A stretch of 64,000 bases of DNA. Origin: a virus. Within the stretch, counting starts at the first letter, position 1; the number at the start of each line of letters is the position of its first letter. Location: IMG/VR virus record IMGVR_UViG_3300025158_000018. One strand, 5' to 3'. The notes under the pieces are model-generated. The model was not told the origin of the DNA, did not search any database, and saw only the letters and a program-made list of their open reading frames with translations. This document shows positions 3,620 through 52,428 of the stretch, piece by piece. A program made the position numbers and the translations under genes.

Positions 3620-3694
3620 TGGTAGCGAAGAGCGGAATCGAACCGCTGACCGAAGGGTTATGAGCCGATCCATCTACCACTGATTGTACTTCGC
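3620..3694 (-). tRNA. tRNA-Met-like (anticodon CAT), possibly degenerate
   Basis: 76-nt cloverleaf frame with CTCATAA loop, canonical T-arm and CCA, but 1-72 T.T mismatch and two mismatches in anticodon stem. Confidence 0.5.
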
Positions 3695-3740
3695 AATAGT
3701 TCAGTTTATTTATTTATTATAGAGCTTTATTTTTATTATG

Positions 3741-4370: not shown

Positions 4371-4441
4371 ACTTTCAAATTTATTTACTACTATTTATAT
4401 GAAATAAATCGGTCTGTAAATAAATCAAATGGTCGGTAGTT

Positions 4442-4480
4442 AATGATAAAAATAGACCCCACGTTTTGCAGGGTCTATTA
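4442..4480 (-). terminator. hairpin terminator downstream of tRNA-Pro
   Basis: tagaccc..gggtcta stem followed by T-run on minus strand. Confidence 0.5.
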
Positions 4481-4485
4481 AATAT

Positions 4486-4561
4486 TGGTCGGGGTTGCAG
4501 GATTTGAACCTACGTCTCCGCCTCCCAAAGGCGGTGCTAAACCAAGCTCAGCTAAACCCCG
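4486..4561 (-). tRNA. tRNA-Pro (TGG)
   Basis: perfect acceptor cggggtt/aaccccg, anticodon stem ccgcc/ggcgg, loop ttTGGga, T-loop TTCAAAT, CCA. Confidence 0.85.
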
Positions 4562-4686
4562 TATATTTAAAAATTAGTGATCTACGGAACTTGTAAGGCG
4601 ATCAACCCTTACCTCTATGCGTTCCATACACGCCGCTGTCAATATTATTGTGAAGGCGTCAGACAGCGAATTAAGCTTTCACAATT

Positions 4687-4772
4687 TGGTGGGTGTAGCT
4701 GGATTCGAACCAACACGCACAAAGGCACCGGGGTTACAGTCCGGGGGGGATACCAGTTTCCCCATTACACCC
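4687..4772 (-). tRNA. tRNA-Tyr (GTA), type II with long variable arm
   Basis: acceptor gggtgta/tacaccc, loop ctGTAac, 14-nt variable arm, T-loop TTCGAAT, CCA; palindromic TATAAATA 17 nt upstream. Confidence 0.7.
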
Positions 4773-4942
4773 AAATCTTCAACTTACGATAATTGTACAG
4801 CTATTTATAGCTAATGTCAAGTCCAGAGCATACATTTGCATCTCTGTAGTAGATTTAATTAATTCTCGGAAATGTCTGGCCCTGCTACAACATCTTGAGT
4901 AATACTCATTACCCAGCCCTCCGATGAATCACGATAAATCTA

Positions 4943-5335
4943 TTACGAGCGTGTCTGGTTACAGCAATTTTGTTTGGCTTGGGTATCTCGTAGTACATTT
5001 TTTCTCCTACCACTATATTCTGGAATGTATTTTCTAAATCTAAGAGATGCCGTCATTGGAACAATGTTGTTCTCACGACAGAAGTGCCTCAAAGAAGTGT
5101 ATTTACCCGAAGTAAATTCAGTATACCACTCTCTGGTCTCTTCATCCAGACCTTCAGTTTTCAATTTTGAAAAAATTGAAGACAAATGCTCAGATTTGCA
5201 TCTCATCCTACAGAACTTGGATTGTGGGCCTAGCCAATCATCCTTCTTGCGAACAATGGGAGACCCGCAACGGATGCAAGATTTGTATCTAGCACCCATT
5301 AAGATTCTTCCACGGATTGTTTTTTCAAAACCCAC
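4943..5335 (-). CDS. hypothetical Cys-rich (zinc-finger-like) protein
   Basis: CIRCGSP..CRMRC motifs; overlaps next gene by 37 nt. Confidence 0.35.
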   Translation of the reverse strand: MGFEKTIRGRILMGARYKSCIRCGSPIVRKKDDWLGPQSKFCRMRCKSEHLSSIFSKLKTEGLDEETREWYTEFTSGKYTSLRHFCRENNIVPMTASLRFRKYIPEYSGRRKNVLRDTQAKQNCCNQTRS

Positions 5336-5883
5336 TGTTCCATGTATTCAGTCAAACAATAATCAGATTCATATCCAATGATGTCGTCTTCAACCCAATT
5401 ACGCTTTCCCCTGAGGCGGTTGATTGCTCGATACGCAATGTTCGGAGTAAGACCGGTGTCATTGGGAGTGTGAACAAAATTTTCTCTCTGCCAATACAAC
5501 ATGTCAGAGTCATCGTCCAAAATCAAATATTCATTGAACCACAGGCCATGATCCTTGTTGGTGTCAATCCATTTCGAGATTTCTTGACCCCGAACACCAG
5601 AATCTAGCACTGGAGTATAATCCAGAATAGGATACCTAAGACCCTTGTTTTGAAGGATAACAGTCAATTCCTCAATGGAAAAACACATCCTCCAAGAAGA
5701 ACTGACAACCACCTGCGCACCAGATACTTCTAGCATCTTGTTCAATATGCTGACAGAAACCGGGTTGATGGCATCCATACGTTCTTCTGATTGGATAGCG
5801 TATTGTGGGGTGTTCAACACCCCATCAATGTCAAGAAAAATGATCTTGCTGTCAATGTTTAACTTGTGTTTAGATGGATTCAT
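5299..5883 (-). CDS. HAD-superfamily phosphatase
   Basis: motif I FLDIDGVLN, motif II SSSW, motif IV LDDDSD. Confidence 0.6.
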   Translation of the reverse strand: MNPSKHKLNIDSKIIFLDIDGVLNTPQYAIQSEERMDAINPVSVSILNKMLEVSGAQVVVSSSWRMCFSIEELTVILQNKGLRYPILDYTPVLDSGVRGQEISKWIDTNKDHGLWFNEYLILDDDSDMLYWQRENFVHTPNDTGLTPNIAYRAINRLRGKRNWVEDDIIGYESDYCLTEYMEQWVLKKQSVEES

Positions 5884-5884
5884 T

Positions 5885-6235
5885 TTACCAATCCATCTTC
5901 TTGAAATTTGGAAAAGTTAATTCAGCTTCAACTGTTTCCACTTCCCCATTTTGGATTCGAGCCTTCCACATGTCCCCATTCTCTTCACCCTCACCATGGA
6001 TTTCGATACGAAGATGGGGAAATGTACGACTGAATTCAATCAACTCAGATTCCCACATATACCACATAATATCGTCCGTTTCAAAAGCCAATAACTTCTT
6101 TCCAGTACGACCAGAAAGAGTAATATCGACGGGATAGCAGCTGACTGCCTTTTTAAGCTTAAATTGAGCAAACTCTGCCTCGTCAGCGTCATTAAATCCA
6201 GTAACTGTTACTTCGTATGAGGTGTAATATCCCAC
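5885..6235 (-). CDS. hypothetical protein
   Basis: ORF abutting upstream gene. Confidence 0.45.
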   Translation of the reverse strand: MGYYTSYEVTVTGFNDADEAEFAQFKLKKAVSCYPVDITLSGRTGKKLLAFETDDIMWYMWESELIEFSRTFPHLRIEIHGEGEENGDMWKARIQNGEVETVEAELTFPNFKKMDW

Positions 6236-6343
6236 AATAACTCTCCTTAATGTTGTTATACGATCAATATACCACAGATAAACAGGTTTGTAAAGATAAA
6301 GAATTGTTGTTTGTTTGTAAATGTAAGAATTGTAAAGAAAAAT

Positions 6344-6565
6344 TTACCTTTTTTCGGCTTTTTCGAGTCTGTCATAGTAATCGGGGAATTCGTTGAGATG
6401 GTCCAGAGCAATCTCTCTAGCGACTTGTTTGTCTGTGGTATGCTCTAGCTCTACTTTAATTCCCTTGACAAGCTGAGATTCGATCTTAGACAGAGCTACG
6501 CCATGTTTTGTTGCGATATCTTTGGGTGAAGGGGTTTTAACGTCTAGGAGTTTTTCTAAAAGCAT
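6344..6565 (-). CDS. hypothetical protein
   Basis: ORF with TATAAATA late-promoter motif ~22 nt upstream (6590-6597, minus). Confidence 0.45.
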   Translation of the reverse strand: MLLEKLLDVKTPSPKDIATKHGVALSKIESQLVKGIKVELEHTTDKQVAREIALDHLNEFPDYYDRLEKAEKR

Positions 6566-6600
6566 GACAGGATAGTGTTTGTTGTATCCTATTTATAGTT

Positions 6601-6685
6601 TGGTACCCGAGGTGGGACTCGAACCCACAACCCTTAAAGGGAGCAGATTTTAAGTCTGCCGCGTATGCCGTTCCGCCACTCGGGC
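6601..6685 (-). tRNA. tRNA-Leu (TAA)
   Basis: anticodon stem gcaga/tctgc, loop ctTAAaa, long variable arm, T-loop TTCGAGT, CCA. Confidence 0.85.
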
Positions 6686-6789
6686 CATAAAACGAAAGAG
6701 TCTCAAACGCATACCTAACTCCTCATGCCGCGACACCCTCGGCGGTTTTCTCGCCGAATGAAACGGCGAAGACTGCGTTTTTTGTCAAA

Positions 6790-6993
6790 TTACTCGTTAT
6801 ACTCTGTTCCGTATTTATCAAGAAGCTTTTTGAGAAGTTCTCGTTCTTCCTGTTCTTTCAATTCTGCTTCCGCTTTTTTCCTCTCCGCTTCTTTGAGTTT
6901 ACGCGCTTCAGCCTTTCTTTTACGTTCTCCAGCCTTTCTTTTACGTTCTTCATCTTTCATCTTTCTAGCTTGAAACTCTTCATCAGTTTCCAA
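6790..6993 (-). CDS. hypothetical K/E-rich coiled-coil protein
   Basis: ORF; underlying DNA has a 24-nt tandem duplication. Confidence 0.35.
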   Translation of the reverse strand: METDEEFQARKMKDEERKRKAGERKRKAEARKLKEAERKKAEAELKEQEERELLKKLLDKYGTEYNE

Positions 6994-7249
6994 GCGTTCA
7001 TATTCTATCGTAAAAGTATAATAATATCCGTCATAATCATCAACAACGACAACAGATAGAAAAGCAGACTCCCCATAATTTTCAATCAGATCATCTATAT
7101 TTTTTCTTAATTCCGAAAGAGTATTATACTCAATCAGACTCGAACAAATGTCCTTTTTTCCTTAACGATGATCTTTTTCATTTATAGGACTCCGGTTTGA
7201 TTTAACGCTAATGTACCAAAAGAACGATATGATGTCAAGTTTTAAATTT

Positions 7250-7335
7250 GGTGCCCCCGGTAGGACTCGAACCTACACACTGTTTCCAGCAAGAGCTTTT
7301 GAGACTCCCGTGTCTACCAATTCCACCACAAGGGC
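7250..7335 (-). tRNA. tRNA-Leu (CAA)
   Basis: acceptor gcccttg/cgggggc (2 GU), loop ctCAAaa, long variable arm, T-loop TTCGAGT, CCA. Confidence 0.75.
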
Positions 7336-7604
7336 AATGTTCGTGAGTTCCGCAGCTAGTATCCCCACTAGGACTAATTTCGCTTTCAACTCTAGCACTG
7401 TCGTTTTTTACCATCAAACGATTAGGTCATGTTAAACAAGGCAACACATGAATTGCACCTTTATTCGACAGCTTTTTCTTTCTTCGAATGTACCCGGCCT
7501 AGTCCTGTACACTCAAGAGTAGCTTACACTCTTTCCAGTCTTCTGGCGACTGGTCTGCCAAATCACCACACCTAAAATATAAGTGCTGAGCTAGGTTTTT
7601 AATT

Positions 7605-7689
7605 TGGTGCCCCCGGTAGGACTCGAACCTACACGCCTCTCGGCAATAGCTTCTAAGGCTATCGTGTCTACCAATTCCACCACAGGGGC
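7605..7689 (-). tRNA. tRNA-Leu (TAG)
   Basis: anticodon stem atagc/gctat, loop ctTAGaa, long variable arm, T-loop TTCGAGT, CCA. Confidence 0.8.
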
Positions 7690-7728
7690 TTTGATTTCAA
7701 ACAATTATATCAGTATATATCACAGTTG

Positions 7729-8109
7729 TCAAGTTTTATTTCGGAATCGAAGCTCATTTAACATAGCCTCTCTCACAATCTCTCCCATGTAGAAACATTC
7801 TTCCAGACATGCTCTAATATGTTCTGAAGACATATCTTTCAACTTCACATAAGTTAAGGGTTGGTCCCCATTCTTACCGTAAGTTCCCCATGTCAATGCC
7901 TCTCTGATTACCTCGTGAGGTTCGTCAGAATAAACATTGAGGTCTATTTCATCACCGTTGGCGCTTCTTCTAGCATAATCCAAACCACCATCAACAATAT
8001 ATGTTTTACCATTGGTTGAGTCCACATACTCGATATAGTCGTGTACATGTCGGCTTTCGAGCACCATGCCATCCGGGGTTTGAATCGCGTTTCGAATAAG
8101 TGTTCTCAT
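7729..8109 (-). CDS. hypothetical protein
   Basis: ORF; 4-nt overlap with next gene. Confidence 0.45.
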   Translation of the reverse strand: MRTLIRNAIQTPDGMVLESRHVHDYIEYVDSTNGKTYIVDGGLDYARRSANGDEIDLNVYSDEPHEVIREALTWGTYGKNGDQPLTYVKLKDMSSEHIRACLEECFYMGEIVREAMLNELRFRNKT

Positions 8110-9131
8110 ATTTCCATCAGCCTTGACATGAATCCTTTCATGGGCCGCTCAGACCCAAAGAAGAAACTACGTCCCTTGTGGGAGCCTTGTCGGAGTCTGG
8201 TATATACGCTGGATAGCTTGTCTATGTTTATTCTGTTGAAAGACATGATTTCATTCCCAGAAGAATCATAAACGCCAGCAGGACCATCCGAAGATTTGAA
8301 CAAAAATCCATCTTGTTCATATTTCCTCGATTCCGACTTCAATAGAGTAAACATCTTGTCGTCATCACCTTCATTTCCCACCACCATGATAGAAGTTTCT
8401 TCTTCATGTGATTCTTTGTCTGTGCCTTGATTTTCAACCCAAGCACCATCAACCCACACAAACCCGAACCCTGCATTACGCAACGACGAAGCCAATTTCT
8501 GATTGGCCGAAATGTTATCTTTCATCGTTCTTTCGCCACGAAACGCAGTAATAATACCAACAGGTTTATTGCTGGTAAAATGATTGTAAACGCGAGACAA
8601 TTTGACCTCGTTGATCATTTCCAAATCTGGTTGTTCTTGAATTGTGGATTCTTTAAGAAATTCTAATGTCATCGCCTCGTCTCCATGACTTTCGTCCAAC
8701 CGATCATTAAGTATATCAGGTGGTTCAACAGTTTGCAAGCGATCTGATTTAATTTCCAGAATTTTCAAATCTACATACGTTCCCATTGTGTTATTGCTGG
8801 TAAAAGTATGGACCCAATTCTTCAAAATTTGTTTGGTTTTTGGTGTTAGAGACCAAAGAGTGACAGACCAGTAGTTCCTATAGTTTCTGACTCGAATCCA
8901 TCCACGCTGTAAGACCAGAGTGATAAGCTCTTCCCGAGCATTGCCCTCTTGATTGTAATTCTCCCCGTGTTTATCATACAAATTCTTAACAAACTCGGAA
9001 GAAACCCCAAATTTGGTTGGGTTTTCAATGACAGTGTGGGAATGCCTTCCGGTTTTGATGATGTCTCCTGTAGGACCTATCCAAAGACCAAGGTTTATAG
9101 GATTCATTTGTTTCAGTTCGGCAAGTTTCAT
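8106..9131 (-). CDS. hypothetical protein (341 aa)
   Basis: long ORF, no motif recognised. Confidence 0.5.
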   Translation of the reverse strand: MKLAELKQMNPINLGLWIGPTGDIIKTGRHSHTVIENPTKFGVSSEFVKNLYDKHGENYNQEGNAREELITLVLQRGWIRVRNYRNYWSVTLWSLTPKTKQILKNWVHTFTSNNTMGTYVDLKILEIKSDRLQTVEPPDILNDRLDESHGDEAMTLEFLKESTIQEQPDLEMINEVKLSRVYNHFTSNKPVGIITAFRGERTMKDNISANQKLASSLRNAGFGFVWVDGAWVENQGTDKESHEEETSIMVVGNEGDDDKMFTLLKSESRKYEQDGFLFKSSDGPAGVYDSSGNEIMSFNRINIDKLSSVYTRLRQGSHKGRSFFFGSERPMKGFMSRLMEI

Positions 9132-9192
9132 GGAAGTGATATACTCGTATTGATCAATTTATTTATACAGTCTTCCTCGGCGTTCCACCTCA

Positions 9193-9639
9193 TTAACAGT
9201 CGAACTTCTCCAAATATTCATTAATCGTTACGAATGCCGTACTGTACTTCTTCATTCTCTCGAAATCCTTTCCACGCAATCCTTTCAGCCGTGTTATGTC
9301 GGAATTATCTCTCAAGTCTTCTCGCTTTACCCTGAGCGCATCTTTATTGTGTTGCATGTCGGAGATATACTCTGAATAAGACTGACCCTCTTTGTGAGTC
9401 AACAGTCTCAGAGCATTGACAACCCTTGAACTGAAGCCTTCTCTTTCCAAGTCCTCAAAGGTCAAATCAGAATCTTCGACTGCATCGTGTAAAATAGCAA
9501 TGCACATTAGCTCTTCGTCATCTGTGCGAAGCCTCATGGCGATTCTCATTGGATGGAGAATGTATGCCTTGCCACCTTTGTCTCTTTGCCCTAGATGTGC
9601 CTGTGAGGCGAGCAGAACAGCCTTATCAAACATCATCAT
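9193..9639 (-). CDS. HD-domain hydrolase resembling RelA/SpoT-type (p)ppGpp hydrolase domain (small alarmone hydrolase-like)
   Basis: LASQAHLGQRDKGGKAYILHP .. AILHDAVED pattern typical of RSH hydrolase HD domain. Confidence 0.55.
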   Translation of the reverse strand: MMMFDKAVLLASQAHLGQRDKGGKAYILHPMRIAMRLRTDDEELMCIAILHDAVEDSDLTFEDLEREGFSSRVVNALRLLTHKEGQSYSEYISDMQHNKDALRVKREDLRDNSDITRLKGLRGKDFERMKKYSTAFVTINEYLEKFDC

Positions 9640-9808
9640 CTCCTACTGAAATGGTATAAACCCGATAGGTAATGTGCGGACCATGTTTAAGACTTTGGGC
9701 ATATTTTTCAGCCTTTATTCCATCGAAAAACGCCCTAGAATGTATATTGAGAACATCGTCGCCTTTGTACTCGTAATTGGGACAAACTATGTAGATTTCT
9801 TGTGTCAT
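9626..9808 (-). CDS. hypothetical small protein
   Basis: ORF. Confidence 0.3.
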   Translation of the reverse strand: MTQEIYIVCPNYEYKGDDVLNIHSRAFFDGIKAEKYAQSLKHGPHITYRVYTISVGDDDV

Positions 9809-9837
9809 GATATTTCTCCTTATTTACAGGTCCCCTT

Positions 9838-10126
9838 GACTTCTCCTCTTCCTTTAGGAAGAGGATTCTTGTTTCACAGTCCACTACATTGTTCTCTACA
9901 AGAACTTTAGATTTATGTCGGACTCCGCAAGCTATCCCCGTATGCCCCACGGTTCTTTTTTCTACCACTTTTAAGGCAGATGTTTTTTTACAATATTATT
10001 CAGCACTTGGTTCTCGATACTGAATATTTTATATTGTACCACTATCTAGTGTTTATGCCAAGTGGTGAAATTTTTAGAATTTGTCCCCTCCCTGAAGGAA
10101 GGGGTCTTCTTTGTTTTCTTGATAAA
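9838..10126. repeat. copy A of ~300-bp inverted repeat (partner at 49681..49986)
   Basis: reverse complement aligns at roughly 90-95% identity by eye to 49681..49986; includes hairpin cctcttcc-ttta-ggaagagg and 3' end of CDS 10074..10715. Confidence 0.75.
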
Positions 10127-10715
10127 CCATTTTGATTTTCTTCTTCAGTTCTGGAATGGTAATGCCCCGTTCGGCTCCTTTAAAGAAGAACCCGCGAAAG
10201 TCAGATTCGACAAACGATCCAATAGGTTTGACCGAATCTTCAACAACTACCCTACCATTAGCTACAGTGAACAACAGGATCGGCTTGGCGTCTTCTTCGC
10301 AGGTCTCCCCGTCAAACAGTTGGCAACGGAGATTTAGGAAAGGAAAAGCTTCAGCGATCAGTCCCCACTCGGCGGCAACAGCTTCTACATCAGGCCATTT
10401 TCCGATGTTCTTGTTGTTACAACCAATTGTACCATCCCAATCACACCAACCATTCGGACCGCCTATCCAACAACTCATGATACGTTCATTTGTCAGATAG
10501 TAGAGGTCGAGAACCTTGTAGGTTTCTCGATTCTTCTCGGATGCTTCGATCCATGAAATGCCATCATCACTTTCTTTTACAAGGGGGGAACAGACTCTGA
10601 ACTTGTTCCGAAAACTCTTGATCGTTACAACTCCATCGAAAGTTAGGAAGATTGGAATCGGTACGCAGAAGGATTTCCGCAGCCTGTTCTTCAGTAACGT
10701 TGTCACCCTGAACAA
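10074..10715 (-). CDS. hypothetical protein
   Basis: ORF; C-terminus lies inside repeat copy A. Confidence 0.5.
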   Translation of the reverse strand: MFRVTTLLKNRLRKSFCVPIPIFLTFDGVVTIKSFRNKFRVCSPLVKESDDGISWIEASEKNRETYKVLDLYYLTNERIMSCWIGGPNGWCDWDGTIGCNNKNIGKWPDVEAVAAEWGLIAEAFPFLNLRCQLFDGETCEEDAKPILLFTVANGRVVVEDSVKPIGSFVESDFRGFFFKGAERGITIPELKKKIKMVYQENKEDPFLQGGDKF

Positions 10716-10769
10716 TCATTCCGGGCCATTTGTTGGTAATCTCACGGGTATTCTTGAATGTCACGTTGT

Positions 10770-11069
10770 TCATATTTGTTCCTCATTATTCTCGAAAAAA
10801 GGCTTCTCCTTATCAATCATATCACCAATCAAAGAAATTTTTTCCTGATCAGAGTATGATTGTTCTGACAAAATTTGTTTTACGTTTTTCAGAACAGAGT
10901 TATATTGAGCCATTGTATCCTTGAGAGCAGCATTAAACAAAATCTCGGAAATCAATGAATTTAAAGTCATTCCCCTTCTGTCTGCTTCTTTCGCCAGCGT
11001 CAGAACGTCTTTGTCCTCAAGTTCAACTTCAATGTTGACATACCCGTCCGATTCATTTTGTATGCCCAT
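10770..11069 (-). CDS. ribbon-helix-helix (CopG/Arc-like) DNA-binding protein, putative
   Basis: N-terminal beta-strand plus helices VELEDKDVLTLAKEADRRGMTLNSLISEIL. Confidence 0.4.
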   Translation of the reverse strand: MGIQNESDGYVNIEVELEDKDVLTLAKEADRRGMTLNSLISEILFNAALKDTMAQYNSVLKNVKQILSEQSYSDQEKISLIGDMIDKEKPFFENNEEQI

Positions 11070-11217
11070 GTGTCTGTTCCTTTCGCATTACCTGATACTA
11101 ATTATACATTAACCCCGGAAGGTTCGTCAAGTCCTTCTACCCTATTTCCAACCACTTGCGGTGGATCATTACGGACCGTGGGCTAATACGGGCATAGTGA
11201 CGCGGGGTAAAATTTTA

Positions 11218-11400
11218 CTATGTGTTAACAAATGCTTCATGCAATACGACTGAATCCATTGAAGCAATAATTGCGCCTTTGTTGAATGCTTCGATCATTG
11301 CGTTATGAATATCGTCAAAATTCATATTGTCTTCTGAAATACCCCACTCCTTGAGTATTTCATCTACTGTCGTCACACACATTTTCATAATCTTCTCCAA
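11218..11400 (-). CDS. hypothetical small protein
   Basis: ORF. Confidence 0.3.
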   Translation of the reverse strand: MEKIMKMCVTTVDEILKEWGISEDNMNFDDIHNAMIEAFNKGAIIASMDSVVLHEAFVNT

Positions 11401-11411
11401 TGTATTTGAAA

Positions 11412-11488
11412 TGGTGGGACCGGGAGGACTCGAACCTCCAACCTGCCGATTATGAGTCGGACGCTCTAACCGATTGAGCTACGGTCCC
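11412..11488 (-). tRNA. tRNA with CAT anticodon; features favour tRNA-Ile2 (lysidine) over Met
   Basis: perfect acceptor gggaccg/cggtccc, D-arm like E. coli Ile2 as recalled, loop ctCATaa with A31-T39; TilS gene encoded at 14734..15378. Confidence 0.8.
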
Positions 11489-11608
11489 AAATCTTATCCA
11501 CCCACCCCAAATCCTGTTTTTGAATTATTCTCAAAGTAAAACATACACTCTTCCGTATGCCGGTCTTGACTTTGAGACAATGTTACTTTAGACCATCAAC
11601 ATGAGATC

Positions 11609-11636
11609 ATTATACCCTATTTATTACCCTTGTCAA
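11609..11636 (-). promoter_or_regulatory. sigma70-like promoter (TTGACA-16-TATAAT), ~115 nt upstream of tRNA 11412..11488
   Basis: minus strand ttgacaagggtaataaatagggtataat. Confidence 0.4.
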
Positions 11637-11654
11637 GAAGGAATCACTCAGCAA

Positions 11655-12062
11655 TTAATACGCTGCTAGACCCACTTTAAGTGAACCACCTGCCATCTTA
11701 GCCGCAACCTGATAAATTTGATCTAGGTTGATAAACTCCATTTGTTTACTGGTAATTGCGCAAGACCAACCAGTAAGATAACGAAAATTTTCATTACCGA
11801 CCTCTATTAAAACACAACAAGTGTCATCTGTCAAGTGCTTCTGAATAATATCTTGAATATCTACATCTACATAATCACCCAAGTCATCGTCGAAGTAATT
11901 GGCAGGAAAGTTCCCGTCTCCTGAAGAAAAAATCTTGACTTCGTTAGTTTCCTCGTCAACAACATGCAATTCAATGTCAAGAGAACCCATATCTTCAAAA
12001 AACTTATCTAGGTCTTTGACTTTGAACACATTACTACGACCCGTACCTTGCCAGTATGCCAT
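11655..12062 (-). CDS. hypothetical protein
   Basis: ORF. Confidence 0.45.
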   Translation of the reverse strand: MAYWQGTGRSNVFKVKDLDKFFEDMGSLDIELHVVDEETNEVKIFSSGDGNFPANYFDDDLGDYVDVDIQDIIQKHLTDDTCCVLIEVGNENFRYLTGWSCAITSKQMEFINLDQIYQVAAKMAGGSLKVGLAAY

Positions 12063-12096
12063 TGTTTTTCTCCTTTAAGTTGAAAATCTTCAAAGC

Positions 12097-12552
12097 TCAA
12101 TCATCCCCAGACTTGCAGAATTCGACAAATTCTGCAAGAGTTCCACTCCACTTGTTGCAAGTGATTTCCTCGACTCCCGCAACGAGAGCATTGTCTGGTT
12201 CCCGAAAATATACAGTATAGTCATAAGCTTGTGAGTCGCCCTCGTCAGTCATATACAAACCTCCGACACGATCCTTATTCTGGGCGATGAACTGGGCAAC
12301 CAAGCAGCCCGGTCCGTTCGCATGGGTTCCGAGGCGAGCATCTGAACCAATACCATGGATAATTTTGATACCAGACAAAAACTCTGCCAAAGTCACACCC
12401 ACACTATCGGGGTAACCATCATACTGCTGATAGACACTGGCAATATGGCGCACTTGGTATTCACTACGTTCTTTGAAATGAATTACACTAGGGGTTCCCA
12501 TTGTTTTCTCCTTTAATTTCGGGTTCATCCTTCTCAGTGTTGATTTCTTCAA
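12097..12552 (-). CDS. hypothetical protein
   Basis: ORF. Confidence 0.45.
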   Translation of the reverse strand: MKKSTLRRMNPKLKEKTMGTPSVIHFKERSEYQVRHIASVYQQYDGYPDSVGVTLAEFLSGIKIIHGIGSDARLGTHANGPGCLVAQFIAQNKDRVGGLYMTDEGDSQAYDYTVYFREPDNALVAGVEEITCNKWSGTLAEFVEFCKSGDD

Positions 12553-12892
12553 TCTGTTGATTCAACCATGATTCCAATAGTTCGAAACTCTTGCTACCAA
12601 CAGACTGTACATGTTCGCTGTTAACCATGTTGAGCGCACCTTCATAACCAAGCGCACCAGCAACAATAATAACGACACCTTCGCGGTCTGGTACGAATGT
12701 TTTTACCATAAGGCCACCAATCAAGAAAAATGAAAGAATGATCAGAGCACCCTTTTCCCACAAAGTTTTCATGAAAGTACGGCCCTTAAGATCACTAAAG
12801 ATAAGACTAAAAAGCAACAACGAAAGCAACGAAAACCCAGACACAGCAATCACGCCCGTTGCGACAGAACGAAAATTATCTACCATCGTCAA
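12488..12892 (-). CDS. hypothetical membrane protein
   Basis: two hydrophobic segments. Confidence 0.4.
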   Translation of the reverse strand: MTMVDNFRSVATGVIAVSGFSLLSLLLFSLIFSDLKGRTFMKTLWEKGALIILSFFLIGGLMVKTFVPDREGVVIIVAGALGYEGALNMVNSEHVQSVGSKSFELLESWLNQQIEEINTEKDEPEIKGENNGNP

Positions 12893-12967
12893 AATATATA
12901 AAGAAGAAATACTACAGAACCTGTGCTCATTTTTTATTACTCCTGTTTGGTTTGAGATTACAGTATA

Positions 12968-13414
12968 TCAGGAATTTTCCAGACTTTCAAGCTGTTTAAT
13001 CTTGAGAGCGAAAAGTTCTCGATACGATTCGGCTAAATGGTCCCATTCGGGCTTGTAATCCTCATGAATAATAGAATCCTGAGTAAAGAATTGACTGTGT
13101 GAATTATGCCATTCCCACTTGTAGTTATCCACATCAAGAACTTTTAACTGTTCCGGAACCTCACCAGTCCCCTTGTAATGTTCCAGATCGGAAAGAGTTG
13201 GCTGATAGTGAATGGCTGAAATCAGTTTGACAGCAGACGTTAGAAGGTCTGCGGTATCACGAAAAACCTTATCAGAGCAACCACAATCACCAAAAGCCCT
13301 ACGCGAATAGATACTTTCTGGCAACCATGTTGCGAGATCCAATCCTAAATTAGAAATGTCATCCATCTCCCGGACGATATCTCTCATTTGGTCGATGATG
13401 CTTAAATTAAACAT
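12968..13414 (-). CDS. hypothetical protein
   Basis: ORF. Confidence 0.45.
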   Translation of the reverse strand: MFNLSIIDQMRDIVREMDDISNLGLDLATWLPESIYSRRAFGDCGCSDKVFRDTADLLTSAVKLISAIHYQPTLSDLEHYKGTGEVPEQLKVLDVDNYKWEWHNSHSQFFTQDSIIHEDYKPEWDHLAESYRELFALKIKQLESLENS

Positions 13415-14049
13415 TACATTGTTCCTTGAATTTGACTTAGTAAAAGTTTTAATCTTCCAGATTCATCTTGAGACAATTCTTTGTTCTTTGCCCAATAGCC
13501 AACCGGAGGTTTAATGATTCCGTGTTTTTTACAATATTTACCTATGGCTGAATCTGATATACCCATAATACTAGCAAGATTTGAGGTGGATGTCAACCAA
13601 ATAAGTTCTTTCAAAACTTCAGGCTTTATACTTATTTTCCTTGAGGATTCTGCGGCACATCTTTTACTACAATATTTTTTTCTTTTTCTGGAATTTCTTT
13701 TAAATTTATTCCCACACATCTGACACACTGAGTGCTTTTCATTATCAGACATAAGTTCATATCCGTTTAGTGTAACGCCACGTTCTTCTATATGCCCTCT
13801 AGCATGCACCGAAATATCTGTTATTTCTAAATTATTGAGGCTGTTATTTTTCCTATTTCCGTCTTTGTGATGAACTACCTCTGTTGGTAGTAGATTTCTT
13901 TGAAGGCTTTCTGCAACAACATAGCGGTGATAATATAATTTTCCAGATTTGTTCGACATCGGGTGATAGGGAGCATACACCACCATGTACCCCAAATGTT
14001 TATCCTCCCAAACCCTAGTACTCTTTTCAAGTGCGATAAATTTCTTCAT
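13414..14049 (-). CDS. HNH endonuclease (HNH_3-type) with C-terminal Zn-ribbon/HTH region
   Basis: VVHHKDGNRKNNSLNNLE HNH motif; CQMCG..C..C; sits between tRNA-Arg and upstream genes. Confidence 0.7.
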   Translation of the reverse strand: MKKFIALEKSTRVWEDKHLGYMVVYAPYHPMSNKSGKLYYHRYVVAESLQRNLLPTEVVHHKDGNRKNNSLNNLEITDISVHARGHIEERGVTLNGYELMSDNEKHSVCQMCGNKFKRNSRKRKKYCSKRCAAESSRKISIKPEVLKELIWLTSTSNLASIMGISDSAIGKYCKKHGIIKPPVGYWAKNKELSQDESGRLKLLLSQIQGTM

Positions 14050-14106
14050 GAAGCCCTCTCGACTAACATACTTTTTATTTATATGTTAGTCGAGAGTTTG
14101 TAATAA

Positions 14107-14182
14107 TGGCACCCTCTACAGGACTCGAACCCATACTAAGGGAGTAGAAATCCCTTGTGCTATCCAGTTACACCAAAAGGGC
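14107..14182 (-). tRNA. tRNA-Arg (TCT)
   Basis: anticodon stem aggga/tccct, loop ttTCTac, T-loop TTCGAGT, CCA; TTGACA-17-TAGTAT promoter at 14193..14221 (minus). Confidence 0.85.
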
Positions 14183-14263
14183 TATTATTTTTATACTACC
14201 ACCAAGATCAAAACCTGTCAACTACTTAACGTTCTTCCATCAAAGAACAAAGTAGTAATCGTT

Positions 14264-14674
14264 TTAATTGTTTCTATCAACCCAATTTACAGTTGGACAA
14301 TACTTATTCTTCCAACCACTAATAGTTTCCCGGATGATTCCCGGTTCCGAATTAGTAGATTTTTCCCAAAGTTGGATACTGTACGCAAACCCCACACATG
14401 CCGCCATTGTTGTAATAATTATCCAGACAATTAACGCCCAAAGAGCGAACGTAAAGAAAATAAACGGGCCACCAAATAAAACCACCACCAACTGAATTGT
14501 TCCTAGGACGAACATTCCCGCCAATGTCCCAAATGCAATTAGACAGAAGGTTAATATGGCTAGGCGAGTCCATAGTTGGCAAAGATTGTTGATATAGTAC
14601 GGGTTGGCCGGTTCCCAGAACTCCCCATACCGATGCAAAAAAGAATAAACTTGGCTGTTCTTTGAAATGTTCAT
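14264..14674 (-). CDS. hypothetical membrane protein
   Basis: multiple hydrophobic helices. Confidence 0.45.
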   Translation of the reverse strand: MNISKNSQVYSFLHRYGEFWEPANPYYINNLCQLWTRLAILTFCLIAFGTLAGMFVLGTIQLVVVLFGGPFIFFTFALWALIVWIIITTMAACVGFAYSIQLWEKSTNSEPGIIRETISGWKNKYCPTVNWVDRNN

Positions 14675-14733
14675 TGTGTGTTCTCCTGTTAGTTTAATCG
14701 TATGGTTGATTGTGTCACGCTTTTATATTCTTG

Positions 14734-15378
14734 TCAACCACTTAACTGTATCAGTGAATTATACTGCTCTTGTACCTTCTTTGCAAGAACTTTATGAATT
14801 CCCGGATTGACTTCGAGAACCTTGGGGACAAGCTCATGACGAATCTTGTTTCGCATGAATCCAGTATTCTCGTTTGAAGGATCATTGATATAAGGAACAG
14901 AATTACGCTCTGCCCATTCCAAAATTTCTTCTTTCTTAGCCATCAACATAGGCCGAAAACAATTTCCCCGCATGTACGGAACGATCTTAGGTGTTCCGTG
15001 AAAACTGGAAAACAGCCAAGTTTCTAAAACATCATCAAGATGATGCGCCAGTAAAATAGGTTCCGGATATCCGTGTTTTTCTGCCCTGTCGAAAAATGAA
15101 TATCGACGTTCACGCCAGAAATCTTCTTTGGACCTCTTTTCGGGAACGGGATCACGAAGTTCATCAGAAATAAACCCCACGCCCAAGGATTCAGAAACAT
15201 TTTTGACGAAAGAAAAAGCGTCGTCGGCGTGTTCCGTCCCATGATGATAGTGCAACACATTGATCTTCCTACGACCGTTGATTAAAAAGTCAAGAAGGAC
15301 CATAGAATCTACCCCACCAGAAACCGCCACATTGACCCGTTCTGGGATTTCTCCCAACATTCTCATCACGGGAACCAC
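14734..15378 (-). CDS. tilS: tRNA(Ile)-lysidine synthetase, catalytic N-terminal PP-loop domain
   Basis: PP-loop VAVSGGVDSMVLL, LHYHHG, RRYSFF, LAHHLDDVLETWLF, FRPML..EIL.WA...VPYINDPSN...RNKIR collinear with E. coli TilS as recalled. Confidence 0.8.
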   Translation of the reverse strand: MVPVMRMLGEIPERVNVAVSGGVDSMVLLDFLINGRRKINVLHYHHGTEHADDAFSFVKNVSESLGVGFISDELRDPVPEKRSKEDFWRERRYSFFDRAEKHGYPEPILLAHHLDDVLETWLFSSFHGTPKIVPYMRGNCFRPMLMAKKEEILEWAERNSVPYINDPSNENTGFMRNKIRHELVPKVLEVNPGIHKVLAKKVQEQYNSLIQLSG

Positions 15379-15608
15379 TCGAACAAGATCATTCCCAGCA
15401 TGTGAAACCCCGAAAGAATGACAAAAACTACCGCGATGGTGCCCAAAATGCCAATGAGAACGCAGTATGCAAAGACGAAAAGAATTCCAATGTAGAACCG
15501 AAAAGTATCCGGGTCATCACCAAAGATAGCAATAACAATATCCACCGGCAACATGAATACAGTGATGAGGATTGAGGTCAAAGTGTAGGACACGCTGCTG
15601 TTTTCCAT
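15366..15608 (-). CDS. hypothetical membrane protein
   Basis: hydrophobic ORF. Confidence 0.4.
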   Translation of the reverse strand: MENSSVSYTLTSILITVFMLPVDIVIAIFGDDPDTFRFYIGILFVFAYCVLIGILGTIAVVFVILSGFHMLGMILFEWFP

Positions 15609-15669
15609 TTTAGTTCCTGTGAGTGAATTCTATAAGAGCATACTACCATGAAAAAATCGATATGTCAAA

Positions 15670-16245
15670 TTATAGAAGTGAACGGTTTTTGAATAGTCGT
15701 TGGAATTGTTGGAAATTTTCTTCTGTAATCATGTGAATTCTGGGGGGCTTGAACCAATAATCGAGACTGGATAGTGCAGCTTCATCATCTGCATAGTATT
15801 CTGACAGCCAGTTGTATACTGTAGAAGCGAACAAAATGCCGTGTCCCTCTTCTCGAATCTTACTCTTGCCCTTTAGGTCATAGTCAATAAAACATTCTAC
15901 CACGACATGAGCCAACTCGTGGAAGACGTATGACGGATACATCATGTTATGTTCCACCCAGATCAATCCATGTCTGGGTCCCAACGTCTTTCCCCAAGAA
16001 TAACTCATGGCAGACCGTGCTTCTGGGTATAACTGTTCGACTCTAACCCCACACTTTTGAGAGATAGAGCGAACAAGCTTAGAGGCTTCAGCTTGATTGA
16101 TCTCATACTCCCTCTTGTAGAAGGAGTCATGAAACCTAGTAAAGATGTCTTCCTGCCAGTCTATCTCTCGTGGAAACTTTGTTTTTTTCTGCGGATGGGA
16201 TTGATTCACGCTTTGTACAAACTTGAGTTGGTCAATCCACTGCAT
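15670..16245 (-). CDS. putative Zn-metallopeptidase-like protein (HExxH)
   Basis: YVFHELAHVV motif. Confidence 0.4.
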   Translation of the reverse strand: MQWIDQLKFVQSVNQSHPQKKTKFPREIDWQEDIFTRFHDSFYKREYEINQAEASKLVRSISQKCGVRVEQLYPEARSAMSYSWGKTLGPRHGLIWVEHNMMYPSYVFHELAHVVVECFIDYDLKGKSKIREEGHGILFASTVYNWLSEYYADDEAALSSLDYWFKPPRIHMITEENFQQFQRLFKNRSLL

Positions 16246-16726
16246 CTTTCGGTCGATATTCCTCTATAGTTTTCTCACAGAAGCCATACACATCCCGCGA
16301 GTACTTGATAATGGTACTGATATGTGTCCAATCATCATGCAAATGATCGATGTTCATATACGCCAACCGTGTCAGTGTCAGACAGGACCTCCACTTAAGA
16401 ACATCCACAGGATTGTCCCCGAAGATGTACTCAAGGTCCATATGAACGCTGGTGCGATACGCAGTGTCCACCGCCTTGATCATCGTGAAGATGTTCCGCC
16501 GAAAATTCTGGTTCTGTAGGAACAACATGTAGGTGTCCAGATCGATAGCGTAGTGCTTCGCCCTTTCACTGCTCCCCAATCCGGGAATGTTAGGAAAAAA
16601 ATACCAACACCAATGGGTTTCCTTTCGACCTTGAACTGAAATCTCGAATAGAGCATTGGTAAGATGTTTTTTCTGCATTCTAGTGTAATCATCTAGAAGT
16701 CTTGCTTTGTCACCATTCTGGATCAT
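16232..16726 (-). CDS. DUF1810-like protein
   Basis: HWCWYFFPNIPGLGSSERAKHYAI resembles DUF1810 signature as recalled. Confidence 0.45.
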   Translation of the reverse strand: MIQNGDKARLLDDYTRMQKKHLTNALFEISVQGRKETHWCWYFFPNIPGLGSSERAKHYAIDLDTYMLFLQNQNFRRNIFTMIKAVDTAYRTSVHMDLEYIFGDNPVDVLKWRSCLTLTRLAYMNIDHLHDDWTHISTIIKYSRDVYGFCEKTIEEYRPKDAVD

Positions 16727-17363
16727 ACGTATAACCTCGGTTGATAATTTTTTCGAAACAATCTTTTAGTGAAGTCGGAGGACAGTCCTGAGACATAGAA
16801 CTGTAACTTAGTTTACCTAGCATCCACTCGTCTTTATCACGATCCAGCATGATCAGGTAATTCACTCCGGAAGCAAATCCGTCGTTCGTATACAATGTGA
16901 TCCCAACACCTTTACGATTTTTACACCCAACCTTGTGGGTAAGTTCGTAGTTGTCGAGAAGCATATTCAACGATTTTTCGAATTCTTCAAAACTGGTATT
17001 CTTTCTTACACGAATTTCCATCCCGTATGTTTTTTGTTGATTCATGTGGTCATAATACGACACAAAGTCGTTAAAGACCGTAGAAGGTAAATTGTACTTG
17101 GCATTTGGCCACGAATTATAAACCTTTTGTGTTACTGCCGCATCGTTGTCTTTTTTCTTACACCACCACAACCAATCCAAAACATCTTTGGTGGTATGTA
17201 CGTCAGGGTCAAACATGACGTTGTGCTTGCGATCCACCAGAGCAACCACGTTACCGGGCATCCCTTCGTCCAAATACTTTTGAAATTTTTCACGCAACGC
17301 ATCCAGATTTTTCCTGTCAGAACTTTGAATCTTTCTGGATCGGGAATATTTCCCGAAATCCAT
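16710..17363 (-). CDS. hypothetical protein
   Basis: ORF. Confidence 0.5.
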   Translation of the reverse strand: MDFGKYSRSRKIQSSDRKNLDALREKFQKYLDEGMPGNVVALVDRKHNVMFDPDVHTTKDVLDWLWWCKKKDNDAAVTQKVYNSWPNAKYNLPSTVFNDFVSYYDHMNQQKTYGMEIRVRKNTSFEEFEKSLNMLLDNYELTHKVGCKNRKGVGITLYTNDGFASGVNYLIMLDRDKDEWMLGKLSYSSMSQDCPPTSLKDCFEKIINRGYTYDPEW

Positions 17364-17548
17364 TCTCGTGCTTCCTTCGCACTAGGGAATTCCGTAGCAG
17401 AATTCAACAAAAAAAACATAATTTGCGCCGTTTTTGGTTAGTCGAATGAACATGCCAAATTTTGTAAGACCATCTACTTGAATGATTGCTTTCATGTGAG
17501 TATTCTATCCTATGGAAAGGGTCTTGTCAACCCCCATGTTAGAAAATT

Positions 17549-17622
17549 TGGTACCTCGTGACAGAATCGAACTGCCGTCATCGCTGTGTAAGAGCGTGGT
17601 TCTTCCATTGAACTAACGAGGC
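17549..17622 (-). tRNA. tRNA-Val (TAC)
   Basis: acceptor gcctcgt/acgaggt, D-stem gttc/gaac, loop ctTACac, T-arm ggcag-TTCGATT-ctgtc, CCA; missed by my first pass, found by T-loop scan. Confidence 0.75.
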
Positions 17623-17629
17623 ATTGTTT

Positions 17630-17714
17630 TGGTGCCGAGGGTAGGATTTGAACCTACGGTGTGGAATACTGGGTTACAAAGCCAGTGCAATCGACCAGAC
17701 TATGCGACCTCGGC
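17630..17714 (-). tRNA. tRNA, probably Thr (TGT); unusual 10-11 nt variable region or 9-nt anticodon loop
   Basis: acceptor gccgagg/cctcggc, T-arm gtagg-TTCAAAT-cctac, CCA; anticodon arm folds as ctggc-tttgtaa-cccag (one mismatch) or actgg-9nt-ccagt; TATAAATA 13 nt upstream. Confidence 0.6.
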
Positions 17715-17904
17715 GTATAACATTTTTATTTATAGGGTGAAGTATAAACGACCTATCGCCCAGAGACTACCTAGCATAAGCAATAAGAACAATCCTGGTA
17801 CCCAATTGTCTGTTACAGATTGAATCATAGCTTTCATGTGACTTCCTTTAGTGTGTAAGCACCTATTTATTATACTCAAAAAATTAGAGCGGTCACACTA
17901 AGTT

Positions 17905-25403: not shown

Positions 25404-26445
25404 TTCTGTTATCCTCGGTTCTTCTCAACTAATTTCGAGCCGCTGTGTGAATGAATGAGCCACCATACTATCACAGGGTCTCAACCATGTCAACTTCCCG
25501 TAGACGATGAGCGAAACCACCACCCACAAGAAAATAGTATTACAGACATATCAAAAATGTAAAGCATACTTTACATTCTCCCTATAAAGAAAACAATGAG
25601 ACACACTTTCACCCATTTAGCATAACTCTAACCCATTGTCAAGAAAAATTGTATCATCCCATTTCACCCATTTACCACATTTTTTAATAGTTGTCAACCC
25701 TTGCAAATCATCAATATTCATGCTATGATAGTGGTATGAAACTGTATCCAAAAAAGGAAATAAGAATGATTCTCGATTCTACTTGACAACCATTCGCATT
25801 CTCATGTAGCATGAGAACACAATTGATAATCATTCCCATTCGCAAAAGTGAATGAGAATCGTTCGCATTTACACAGATGAGAATGAGAATCATTCGTATT
25901 ACCATTCTCATCAGCATTCAAAGCCCACTTTTCAAGGCTAAAAAATGCTTGACAAGGATCATAACATTTGATAAAATCATTAAGCCTATAGGCAAAATTA
26001 TAATACTTTAGGAAACTCTAATGTAACATTCCCATAAAAATCAAAGACTTACATGAGATAGGGGTCTGGAAAATTTTTCGAAATGTATGCAGAGTTCGGT
26101 CCATGCAATTAGTGTTTAAACATTGATCACTTTACACCATTGAAAAAGTTGTTATTTTTCATATGTTTATGTAGTGTTCTTAGAAGTGCTGGAAATACTG
26201 TGTTCTAAGTATTTTCATATGTTCTACGGGCAGAATGTAAAGTATACTTTACAAAGTAGTATAATAGCTGTTCACCAAATGTGGTAGAAAGTGGAATATT
26301 GTGGTATTATGTGGTAAAAAATGGAAAACCCCTAACGCACGCGTTAGCCCTTAATGGTATCGTGTTGTATAAAAGACACTTAACGGTTTAGTTAATAGTT
26401 CACTTAACTGAATATTACGAGGTTCACTTAACAGGAGTTTAGTTT
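25404..26445. promoter_or_regulatory. 1-kb AT-rich non-coding hub between divergent gene blocks: palindromes, iterons, sigma70-like promoters; candidate early-promoter cluster and/or replication origin
   Basis: TGTAAAG-N4-CTTTACA palindromes at ~25559 and ~26237; TGTGGTA x3 at 10-bp spacing 26280-26316 with inverted copy at ~25665; GAGAATCATTCG-type repeats 25765-25900; TCACTTAAC x3 26378-26432; TTGACA-17-TAAAAT at 25948-25976. Confidence 0.5.
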
Positions 26446-47638: not shown

Positions 47639-47990
47639 ACTATTATCTGTATACTCTGTTCGTTATTTATAGGGATTGTAAATTCGTTTGTGTAGACGCC
47701 CATTGATCCTCAGGTAATAAGGAGAGCATCAATGGAAGCAATCATGAAGAACGAGAAAGTCAAGAAGTTGGTGGCCGATCCGCGACTGGAAAGCCGCACT
47801 GAATCAACTTATCATCCAGTTCGATGACCGGATTACCCGTCATCTTTGAGAGGGTGGTTACACAGAAAAATTTACAGGCTCTTTTTATATGATTAAACTT
47901 CATGTTGATATACCAACCATCGTAAAAGTTTAAGAAACGTTTTCTGTACAGATGACATACCTACTACATCAACGCGACCACAAACACTTA

Positions 47991-52390: not shown

Positions 52391-52428
52391 ACGAATGCTT
52401 ATTATTATACCTATTTATATCCAACCCG

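Follow-up and report, generated by a model that had tools for sequence, protein, structure and literature searches.

The 64,000-nt stretch of viral DNA held as IMG/VR record IMGVR_UViG_3300025158_000018 (hereafter the window) contains, at the point where two gene blocks diverge, a 1-kb non-coding hub that is probably a conserved, divergent early-transcription control region of a large phage encoding rIIA and rIIB. Within this hub, host sigma-70 promoters appear to be gated by sites of host-regulator type, comprising an array of boxes for Fur, the host's iron-sensing repressor, together with palindromes for a dimeric regulator. Specifically, the GAGAATCATTCG repeats that a first-pass annotation of the letters alone had called iterons are, by their motif, an array of six Fur boxes, and the phage probably reads or soaks up the host's iron regulator by means of them. 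This interpretation draws on the motifs and their statistics, on their correspondence with the Fur and TyrR motifs of E. coli, on their placement relative to promoter-like hexamers, and on their conservation, all of which were directly observed. The outline of the hub given by the annotation holds: the interval from the leftward ATG at 25403 to approximately 26446 contains no credible open reading frame (ORF), no Rfam match is found at the gathering thresholds, and the GC skew switches from -0.31 to +0.30 at approximately 26000, where the two gene blocks part.

The GAGAATCATTCG repeats form a tight cluster with copies in both orientations, as had been noted, but the exact 12-mer occurs once only (25885, plus strand), the others carrying one or two mismatches, including the minus-strand copy at 25763. 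Viewed as 19-mers, six sites within 142 bp score 15.5-24.2 bits against a matrix built from related phages with the window excluded, whereas the rest of the 64 kb scores no higher than 13.4 bits. Twenty-one sites from four hubs yield the consensus AATGAGAATCATTCTCATT, which differs from the classical Fur palindrome at two symmetric positions only. Equivalence of the two motifs was checked by scanning a matrix made from the phage sites alone over 150 kb of annotated E. coli K-12 sequence (150,000 positions). The four highest-ranking matches were, in order, the region upstream of gpmA, fepB-entC, the region upstream of fhuA, and fepA-fes, all of them documented Fur operators (PMC2189734), and seven of the top eight matches fell within some 1.1 kb of Fur-controlled intergenic DNA. 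The 19-mers at 25876 and 25882 overlap, being displaced by 6 bp, and overlapping sites in Fur clusters are typically offset by 6 (or 3) bp (PMC2189734). The array accordingly has the hallmarks of a Fur operator, namely a 19-bp, 9-1-9 inverted repeat with Fur specificity, clustering at a 6-bp offset, and overlap with a predicted sigma-70 promoter. A search of the 64-kb window with the E. coli Fur sequence found no Fur homologue.

The array is not peculiar to the window. Five metagenome contigs found via their rIIA homologues were used for comparison, making six lineages in all; their rIIA identity to the window is 66% (L108), 60% (L109), 54% (L104), and 38 and 37% (L242 and L243). All six lineages carry such an array, even at 37-38% rIIA identity, with six sites in L242 and four in L243, in each case at the equivalent position, with an embedded TTGACA promoter, and with nothing comparable elsewhere in 22 kb. 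Each of the five relatives possesses a non-coding gap at the equivalent divergence point, upstream of the rIIA-side block, although the genes flanking the hub are poorly conserved or replaced. Blocks of the hub are 88-97% identical between the window and L108, while the rIIA protein is only 66% identical, and the order of elements is still discernible in L242 and L243; the hub is therefore under selection as DNA. Taken as a whole, it is largely conserved among the five diverged relatives, all large rIIA/rIIB phages. Two further contigs carry a hub 100% identical to that of the window and add no comparative information.

The annotation had also seen in the hub a densely regulated early-promoter region, and this description stands. 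Near-consensus host-type promoters are numerous in this phage, with the form TTGACA-17-TAnnnT and often a TG extension (e.g., tgTGgTAgtAT). In the hub, three leftward (P_L1 to P_L3) and three or four rightward (P_R1 to P_R4) sigma-70-type promoters are predicted, interleaved with operator-like sites (Table 1). They face the flanking genes, with 16-18-bp spacing between hexamers, and across the relatives the -35 and -10 hexamers persist despite variable spacers. For example, counterparts of P_L1 with TTGACA-17-TAnnnT occupy the equivalent place in L108, L109 and L104. P_L2 and P_L3 are copies of one unit, TTGACA-N14-TGnTAAATGGGTGAAA, and the broader motif TTGACA-N14/15-TGnTAAAnGRnTGAAA has two or three copies in every related hub and occurs once elsewhere in L110/L111. 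The -10 region of P_R1 is invariant in four hubs, the stretch 25720-25757 is 97% identical to L108, and L242 has TTGATT-17-TATAAT in its place. The T-A-n-n-n-T of P_R2 is likewise kept, as TACAGT in L108 and TAGACT in L109, and the arrays of L242 and L243 hold an embedded TTGACA-17-TACGAT. P_R3, the strongest match to consensus, persists in L108 and in degenerate form in L109, and L104 lacks it. Finally, the TATAAT of P_R4 is kept in all relatives that reach it (L108, L104, L242 and L243), and it is from this conservation that it may be taken for a promoter. In the proposed scheme, host sigma-70 RNA polymerase would start leftward transcripts at P_L1-3 and rightward transcripts at P_R1-3 and at the -35-less P_R4.

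Table 1. Features of the hub, with one related site in a second intergenic gap; positions are those of the window, and promoters are predictions.
Feature	Position	Strand	Remarks
P_L1, predicted promoter	25465..25493	-	nearest first left gene (ATG 25403); TTGACA-17-TAGTAT, TG extended -10; scan 10/12 with TG
Palindrome 1, TGTAAAGCATACTTTACA	25558..25575	.	12/12 TyrR-box consensus; between P_L2/P_L3 and P_L1
P_L2, predicted promoter	25614..25642	-	TTGACA-N14-TGC-TAAATG-GGTGAAA; read from sequence
P_L3, predicted promoter	25669..25697	-	same type as P_L2; extended -10 TGTGGTAAATGGG = inverted TGTGGTA copy
P_R1, predicted promoter	25701..25729	+	TTGCAA-17-TATGAT, TG extension; back-to-back with P_L3; scan 9/12 with TG
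Fur-box array, six putative sites	25759..25900	.	19-mers at 25759, 25782, 25822, 25851, 25876, 25882
P_R2, predicted promoter	25783..25812	+	TTGACA-18-TAGCAT inside Fur array; scan 10/12
P_R3, predicted promoter	25949..25977	+	strongest consensus: TTGACA-17-TAAAAT, TG extension; scan 11/12
AT-rich non-coding block	25978..26235	.	~260-300 bp, conserved in patches at DNA level, six lineages
IHF-core match AATCAAAGACTTA	26039..26051	+	consensus WATCAANNNNTTR; one of three matches in window
Palindrome 2, TGTAAAGTATACTTTACA	26236..26253	.	12/12 TyrR-box consensus; ends 6 bp upstream of TATAAT
P_R4, inferred promoter, -10 TATAAT	26260..26265	+	read from sequence; no -35 match
C-free tract	26277..26328	+	five 10-bp units WWGTGGWAWW including three TGTGGTA; second-longest C-free run in window
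Palindrome/hairpin CTAACGCACGCGTTAG	26332..26347	.	CTAACGC-N2-GCGTTAG; most deeply conserved hub element
Three (T/A)CACTTAAC copies, 24-bp spacing	26376..26432	+	leader before first right-hand gene
Third TyrR-type box, TGTAAAGAAAAATTTACC	6331..6348	.	11/12; second intergenic gap with tandem leftward CTTTACA-type promoters

The array begins approximately 25 bp past the predicted start of P_R1, overlaps P_R2, and runs on for approximately 90 bp beyond it. With this geometry, iron-loaded host Fur would cover about 140 bp, P_R2 would be masked and transcripts begun at P_R1 would be blocked, and part of rightward early transcription would then be tied to the iron state of the host, with P_R3 and P_R4 independent of Fur. 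Replication of the phage would add further copies of the array, which would also sequester Fur. Protein binding, transcription starts and the direction of regulation are all inferred here. Several points weigh against so direct a role. A Fur of this specificity, as judged by the E. coli motif, cannot be assumed for the host. Most of the boxes do not cover a promoter but follow one on its downstream side, and P_R3 and P_R4 escape the array, which makes the regulatory benefit uncertain and a purely trans-acting role possible. Likewise, P_R4 has no -35 element and is proposed from its conserved TATAAT alone. Finally, the AT-rich block at 25978-26235, the 10-bp periodic tract and the conserved hairpin lie outside the explanatory reach of a model built on promoters and regulator sites.

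In the trans-acting alternative the array works mainly as a sponge: each genome brings six high-affinity sites, and their growing number during replication would titrate Fur and derepress the host's iron-uptake regulon, for example supplying iron-dependent nucleotide synthesis, and any effect in cis would be secondary. Multicopy Fur boxes do titrate Fur in vivo, this being the basis of the established Fur titration assay (PMC2189734), and the bypass of the array by P_R3 and P_R4 also fits. Both T5 and the T5-like phage AAS21 have comparable arrays without an obvious regulated gene, located in their non-coding injection-stop regions. In addition, a perfect 19-mer, AATGAGAATNATTCTCATT, was found in more than 120 viral contigs (among them IMG/VR contigs L122-L241), with at least 15 loci having at least four sites per 300 bp (15 of 120 among the matches listed). 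On the other side, all six related phages have a TTGACA promoter embedded in the array and another just upstream of it, which speaks for control in cis, and in one IMG/VR contig (L192:1810-1888) three perfect 30-bp tandem units stand just upstream of strong TTGACA-17-TATAAT promoters. Moreover, that the copy numbers of Fur and of phage genomes would suffice for a sponge is our own estimate. A predominantly trans-acting array is judged unlikely; the sponge role and the cis role are compatible. Another IMG/VR locus with AATGAGAATNATTCTCATT is L239:1483-1750, and many of the contigs bearing this 19-mer are 100-120 kb long, the size of T5-like genomes.

The mechanism of the T5 injection stop has been open for decades, and the repeats at that place prove to be relevant here. 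The T5 "direct repeat C" together with palindromes E-I (9468-9637) forms an array of Fur-type boxes scoring up to 23.3 bits at the first-step-transfer boundary, located at 9473-9636 of AY587007 (L115:374-537). It adjoins a perfect LexA-type box (palindrome D, TACTGTATAAATATACAGTA) and DnaA-type boxes, and the calculated T5 shear point, 9618, falls inside a 22.8-bit box at 9612-9630. The AAS21 array (L001:3007-3303) reaches 25.7 bits. The only DNA likeness to the hub among isolated phages is an 83-bp stretch with 77.6% identity to window positions 25816-25900 in the T5-like phages AAS21 and KEY, and there too the stretch lies in a non-coding region with DnaA-type and LexA-type boxes. The T5 repeats have been described as unexplained, with no mention of Fur (10.1101/866236), and our literature search found no paper linking Fur to them. 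It is tempting to suggest that host Fur-box arrays are a widespread device of virulent phages, found in this clade, in T5-like phages and in many uncultured viral contigs and undescribed in the literature searched, although so broad a claim is put forward as a speculation more likely to fail than to hold. If true, arrays would capture Fur to couple early transcription to iron, to open the host's iron-uptake regulon, or to roadblock entering DNA, and the T5 stop signal might be Fur-bound DNA, as the array coincides with the injection-stop signal.

The second class of operator-like site is the pair of palindromes. The annotation's perfect TGTAAAG-N4-CTTTACA is exact at both places, its copies standing 678 bp apart rather than the 680 bp first given, and it is indeed commoner than chance: with up to two mismatches the window holds three matches against 0.32 expected, and none of 100 shuffles reaches three. 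Written as TGTAAAGyATACTTTACA, the sequence is an instance of TGTAAA-N6-TTTACA, the consensus of the TyrR box, "strong" examples of which match at least 10 of 12 positions and have G-N14-C (PMC4374768). Both palindromes match at every consensus position and have the invariant G-N14-C. As a control of specificity, 150 kb of E. coli gave three matches at 10/12 or better, two of them just upstream of aroP and aroG, both genes of the TyrR regulon. L108 and L109 preserve all 12 consensus positions, with variation at some of the N6 positions. A dimeric regulator, whether TyrR or a phage protein, may occupy both palindromes. On palindrome 2 it would cover approximately -36 to -19 of P_R4 (the -35 region and spacer), a typical repressor position, and on palindrome 1 it would sit downstream of P_L2 and P_L3 and upstream of P_L1.

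That the regulator is TyrR can be proposed only tentatively, as a possibility about on a par with a regulator of the phage's own, and a number of findings weigh against it. Palindrome 1 is kept in L109 only, where it abuts the P_L1 -35 element, and is absent from L108, L104, L242 and L243. Palindrome 2 is 12/12 in L108 and present in L109, clipped there at the contig end, but it is degenerate (8/12) in L104 and gives way to other palindromes in L242 and L243; the TATAAT is kept in these last three, so the box is not kept wherever the promoter it would regulate is kept. G7/C12 and the central ATA, which are outside the TyrR consensus, are conserved as well. Approximately 100 unrelated low-GC IMG/VR contigs (L002-L101), members of a few families, contain the exact 18-mer TGTAAAGYATACTTTACA. 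Furthermore, no TyrR can be assumed for the host. The distribution of the palindromes among the relatives is explained no less well by a lineage-specific phage regulator than by TyrR.

Under the competing explanation, a dimeric regulator encoded by the phage would use the palindromes as its operators, or they would serve as a -30 element in a class of promoters specific to the phage, and their agreement with the TyrR consensus would be a coincidence. Different palindromes occupy the position upstream of the conserved TATAAT in different lineages, each of the window's three boxes is followed 5-7 bp later by a TAnnnT-like hexamer, and 7.5 kb rightward of the hub there is a gene for a small HTH_17-like protein; the reach of conservation past the TyrR positions and the recurrence of the 18-mer in unrelated viral contig families point the same way. 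It must nevertheless contend with the high specificity of the TyrR consensus in a real genome (three matches in 150 kb, two of them true targets), with four independent 12/12 matches in the phage clade, and with a neighbouring repeat that is itself a host-regulator motif, use of host factors being already a theme of the hub. A phage regulator is thus, like TyrR, a candidate of somewhat less than even standing. Two other roles for the palindromes were rejected. As intrinsic terminators their stems are weak and AU-rich, with a T-run in only one of four orientations, and as back-to-back -35 elements they have no -10 at 16-18 bp in the relatives. One family of TGTAAAGYATACTTTACA-bearing contigs is related to Methylophilaceae phage P19250A, and the 18-mer often follows, by 12-15 bp, an ATCAAnGAyTTR motif that resembles the IHF-like site of the hub.

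The TGTAAAG half-site had been reported three times at 6281-6335, in another intergenic gap. Two copies are exact (6289 and 6331) and the third is TGTAAAT (6317); the sequence at 6331-6348 matches the full palindrome with two mismatches. This gap (6284-6348) shows leftward tandem promoters with CTTTACA as the -35 element (CTTTACA-17-TATATT, TGTGG), as well as the longest C-free run in the window (63 nt).

Between palindrome 2 and the first right-hand gene lie several further repeats. The TGTGGTA set consists of copies at 26279, 26299 and 26309 and an inverted copy at 25673, as first described, but the spacings are 20 and 10 bp rather than uniformly 10; with the degenerate units at 26289 and 26319 included, five 10-bp units result. 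The inverted copy is, from its position, the extended -10 of P_L3. The 10-bp period of the tract is kept in L108 and L104 with a drifting unit sequence, and the tract is absent from L242 and L243. Reading ATGTGGTAG/ATGTGGTAA (26279-26317; ATGTGGTAR) as Met-Trp-stop was rejected as probably a coincidence, there being no ribosome-binding site and the 10-bp period not being a multiple of three. In L108 the equivalent tract has a 22-codon ORF with tandem TGG TGG (L108:1230-1285, minus strand), beside a TyrR-type box. In the leader of the first right-hand gene, TCACTTAAC, reported as occurring three times, has two exact copies (26400 and 26424) and a third with a mismatch (26376), all 24 bp apart, and is weakly conserved in relatives. 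The palindrome at 26332-26347 is far better preserved: AACCTCTAACGCGTGCGTTAGGGGTT is nearly identical in L104, L242 and L243 (37-54% rIIA identity) and close in L108. It could fold into a 9-bp stem that includes a U-G pair and is capped by a tetraloop, or could act as a 16-bp operator, and, its stem being invariant, covariation cannot tell an RNA role from a DNA role.

Window-wide counts might suggest that such motifs are chance products of AT-rich, low-complexity intergenic DNA: TCACTTAAC is not enriched (11 matches against 17.9 expected), and TGTGGTA only marginally so (62 against 50.9). For the hub as a whole this explanation is vanishingly improbable, and for the palindromes and the Fur array it is refuted, given the shuffle statistics of the former, the cluster scores of the latter, and conservation over six lineages with diverged or replaced flanking proteins. 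The pattern noticed at the outset is real and largely non-random.

The AT-rich block that follows P_R3 has sub-blocks 88-95% identical to L108, with patches persisting in L242 and L243. It holds the minimum of the cumulative GC skew and the most AT-rich stretches of the hub (23-27% GC, approximately 26000-26200), and its sole recognised binding site is the integration host factor (IHF) core match, kept in L108, L109 and L104 and lost in L242 and L243. A structured RNA in the hub was considered and rejected, with no Rfam match, weak consensus folds on both strands (-12 and -7.6 kcal/mol) and a six-sequence fold of -0.3 kcal/mol; the folds predict only the invariant hairpin at 26332-47, with no covariation. 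An 11-codon, minus-strand ORF in the block was also discarded, being frame-shifted in L109.

The first-pass annotation had offered a replication origin as an alternative or additional function. By analogy with T4 oriF and oriG and the T7 primary origins, the hub might hold a transcription-activated origin, in which promoters firing into the AT-rich block, or P_R4 firing into the C-free tract, would form an R-loop or open the duplex, with the regulator sites gating initiation. Such a role would suit a block of about 300 bp conserved as DNA without coding potential or conserved RNA structure, its low GC content (23-27%) and skew minimum, its IHF-core match, and the 52-nt C-free tract that comes after TATAAT. 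Positive evidence for an origin was not found, however. Neither conserved DnaA boxes nor a set of at least three direct 17-22-bp iterons of the classical kind is present, the direct repeats and supposed iterons being Fur boxes, a TyrR-type palindrome, promoter copies with an extended -10, and 10-bp units. The reversal of gene orientation can account for the skew switch, which is confounded by the change in transcription direction. No initiator gene was recognised beside the hub, and the C-free tract is missing from L242 and L243. An origin in the hub thus stands as an unlikely possibility, the observations speaking decisively neither for nor against it. A search of the hub for conserved sites of DnaA, LexA, CRP, FNR, ArgR, PurR, NrdR, MetJ, TrpR, Zur and sigma-54, using their consensus sequences, found none.

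The source of the window appears to be a large rIIA/rIIB-encoding phage, as judged from contig sizes and closest isolates. The cluster of its rIIA protein is present on contigs of up to 257 kb, L242 is a 271-kb contig, and the closest isolated phages are XacN1, Xoo-sp13 and CM1, jumbo phages of Xanthomonas/Stenotrophomonas with approximately 40% protein identity. Genes of the window include rIIA and rIIB homologues, an NAD-dependent ligase, NAMPT, RNA ligases, 11 tRNA genes (all within 3378-17714), and a permuted, two-piece transfer-messenger RNA gene (52068-52396, minus strand; 60.9 bits to Rfam RF04321, with ARAGORN tag AANDADFDSNANGFALAA). The genes scanned around the hub belong to no PHROG family and have only two weak Pfam matches, DUF1281_C in the fourth gene leftward and a below-threshold ARMET_C, a profile that may be read as typical of early genes.

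Searches for closer relatives returned little. No near-identical DNA to the window was found among isolated phages, and a megablast of the left block against isolated phages gave no match. Within a metagenome collection, the first left-hand protein has exact index entries in 108 blocks. Searches of viral contigs seeded with the left neighbour gene and with rIIA returned nothing. The hub's DNA pattern had no match in viral contigs, and in metagenome contigs matched only L104, already found, and two ABC-transporter loci by chance. A scan of a genome collection for the host gave a single chance match, inside a GGDEF gene of a Colwellia metagenome-assembled genome.

Two further promoter-like features were noted. 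The T4-type late-promoter motif CCTATAAATA is enriched, with 12 occurrences at up to one mismatch against five expected, mostly gene-oriented (e.g., 17727-17736 and 47664-47673, both minus strand); a one-mismatch version, CCTATAAAGA, at 25581-25590 (plus strand) stands 5 bp to the right of palindrome 1 and is not kept in L109. In other promoters the ATG of the next gene comes 6 nt past the -10 (TAGAAT-ACTCAC-ATG), as at 17530-17494 of the window (minus strand) and L110:7793-7832, an arrangement pointing to leaderless mRNAs among these phages.

Most known cases of phage promoters controlled by host regulators come from temperate phages, LexA, IHF, and Fur at the stx1 promoter being examples. 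In the hub, a conserved array of six putative Fur boxes stands at the centre of the early control region of a large virulent-type phage and is retained in relatives with proteins diverged to 37% identity. Its persistence suggests that host iron status, or the capture of Fur, is a selected input to infection. More generally, intergenic "iterons" of phages can prove to be host-regulator sites once the phage motif is scanned over a well-annotated host genome, and Fur-box arrays in virulent phages, including that of the T5 injection-stop region, furnish testable hypotheses that reach beyond the window.

Among known systems, the closest likeness of the array is to the multi-site Fur operators of enterobacteria (gpmA, fepB-entC, fepA-fes, fhuA and fhuF), which share the 19-bp 9-1-9 repeat, the clustering, the pair with a 6-bp offset and the overlap with sigma-70 promoters. 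The window array differs in belonging to a lytic-type phage, in having six strong sites in 142 bp that lie mostly downstream of promoters, and in preferring the arms GAGAAT/ATTCTC where enterobacterial operators have GATAAT/ATTATC; moreover, enterobacterial operators serve iron genes, whereas no recognisable iron-related gene lies downstream of the array. A phage-borne Fur box is found in the lambda-type cosQ site GATGATAATCATTATCAC upstream of nohA, in prophage Qin of E. coli K-12 (L117:1290-1330), and the Fur site upstream of nohA binds Fur in gel shifts (PMC2189734). A blastn search of the array against E. coli genomes, too insensitive a method for the purpose, gave one marginal match, in a prophage cos region. 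The cosQ variant CAATTGATAATCATTCTCATT of an E. coli SCU-171 prophage (L116:2501-2525), at the same position as the nohA site, matches window positions 25816-25840 at 24 of 25 bases. Unlike the window's array at a promoter hub, the cosQ site is a single box at a packaging site.

The palindromes, for their part, resemble the boxes of TyrR-controlled promoters (aroG, aroP, tyrP and aroF) in being strong 12/12 boxes with G-N14-C, one of them over a -35 region and spacer, and the divergent akr-ipdC region of Enterobacter also has TyrR boxes in a divergent intergenic region (PMC4374768). The hub departs from such promoters in its phage setting, in lacking a weak box adjoining box 2, in the 678 bp between its boxes, and in the absence of the boxes from distant relatives. 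As a whole, the hub shares with the early-promoter clusters of T-even and T7-type phages its tandem strong host-type promoters heading blocks of small genes of unassigned function, and with the transcription-activated origins of such phages the succession of a promoter and an AT-rich tract; T4-type late motifs (CTATAAATA) elsewhere in the window add to the likeness to T-even phages. It differs from these regions in having no recognised MotA-box-type element or origin function, and we know of no description of embedded host-regulator sites in T-even or T7-type early-promoter regions. Finally, repeat region 3 of T5 and T5-like phages, the injection-stop region, resembles the hub as an array of Fur-type boxes in a conserved non-coding hub of a virulent phage. 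Region 3 has in addition paired DnaA boxes, a LexA-type box and a terminal repeat at the first-step-transfer boundary, whereas the hub of the window, which is interior to the 51-63-kb contigs read, has none of these and is instead rich in promoters.

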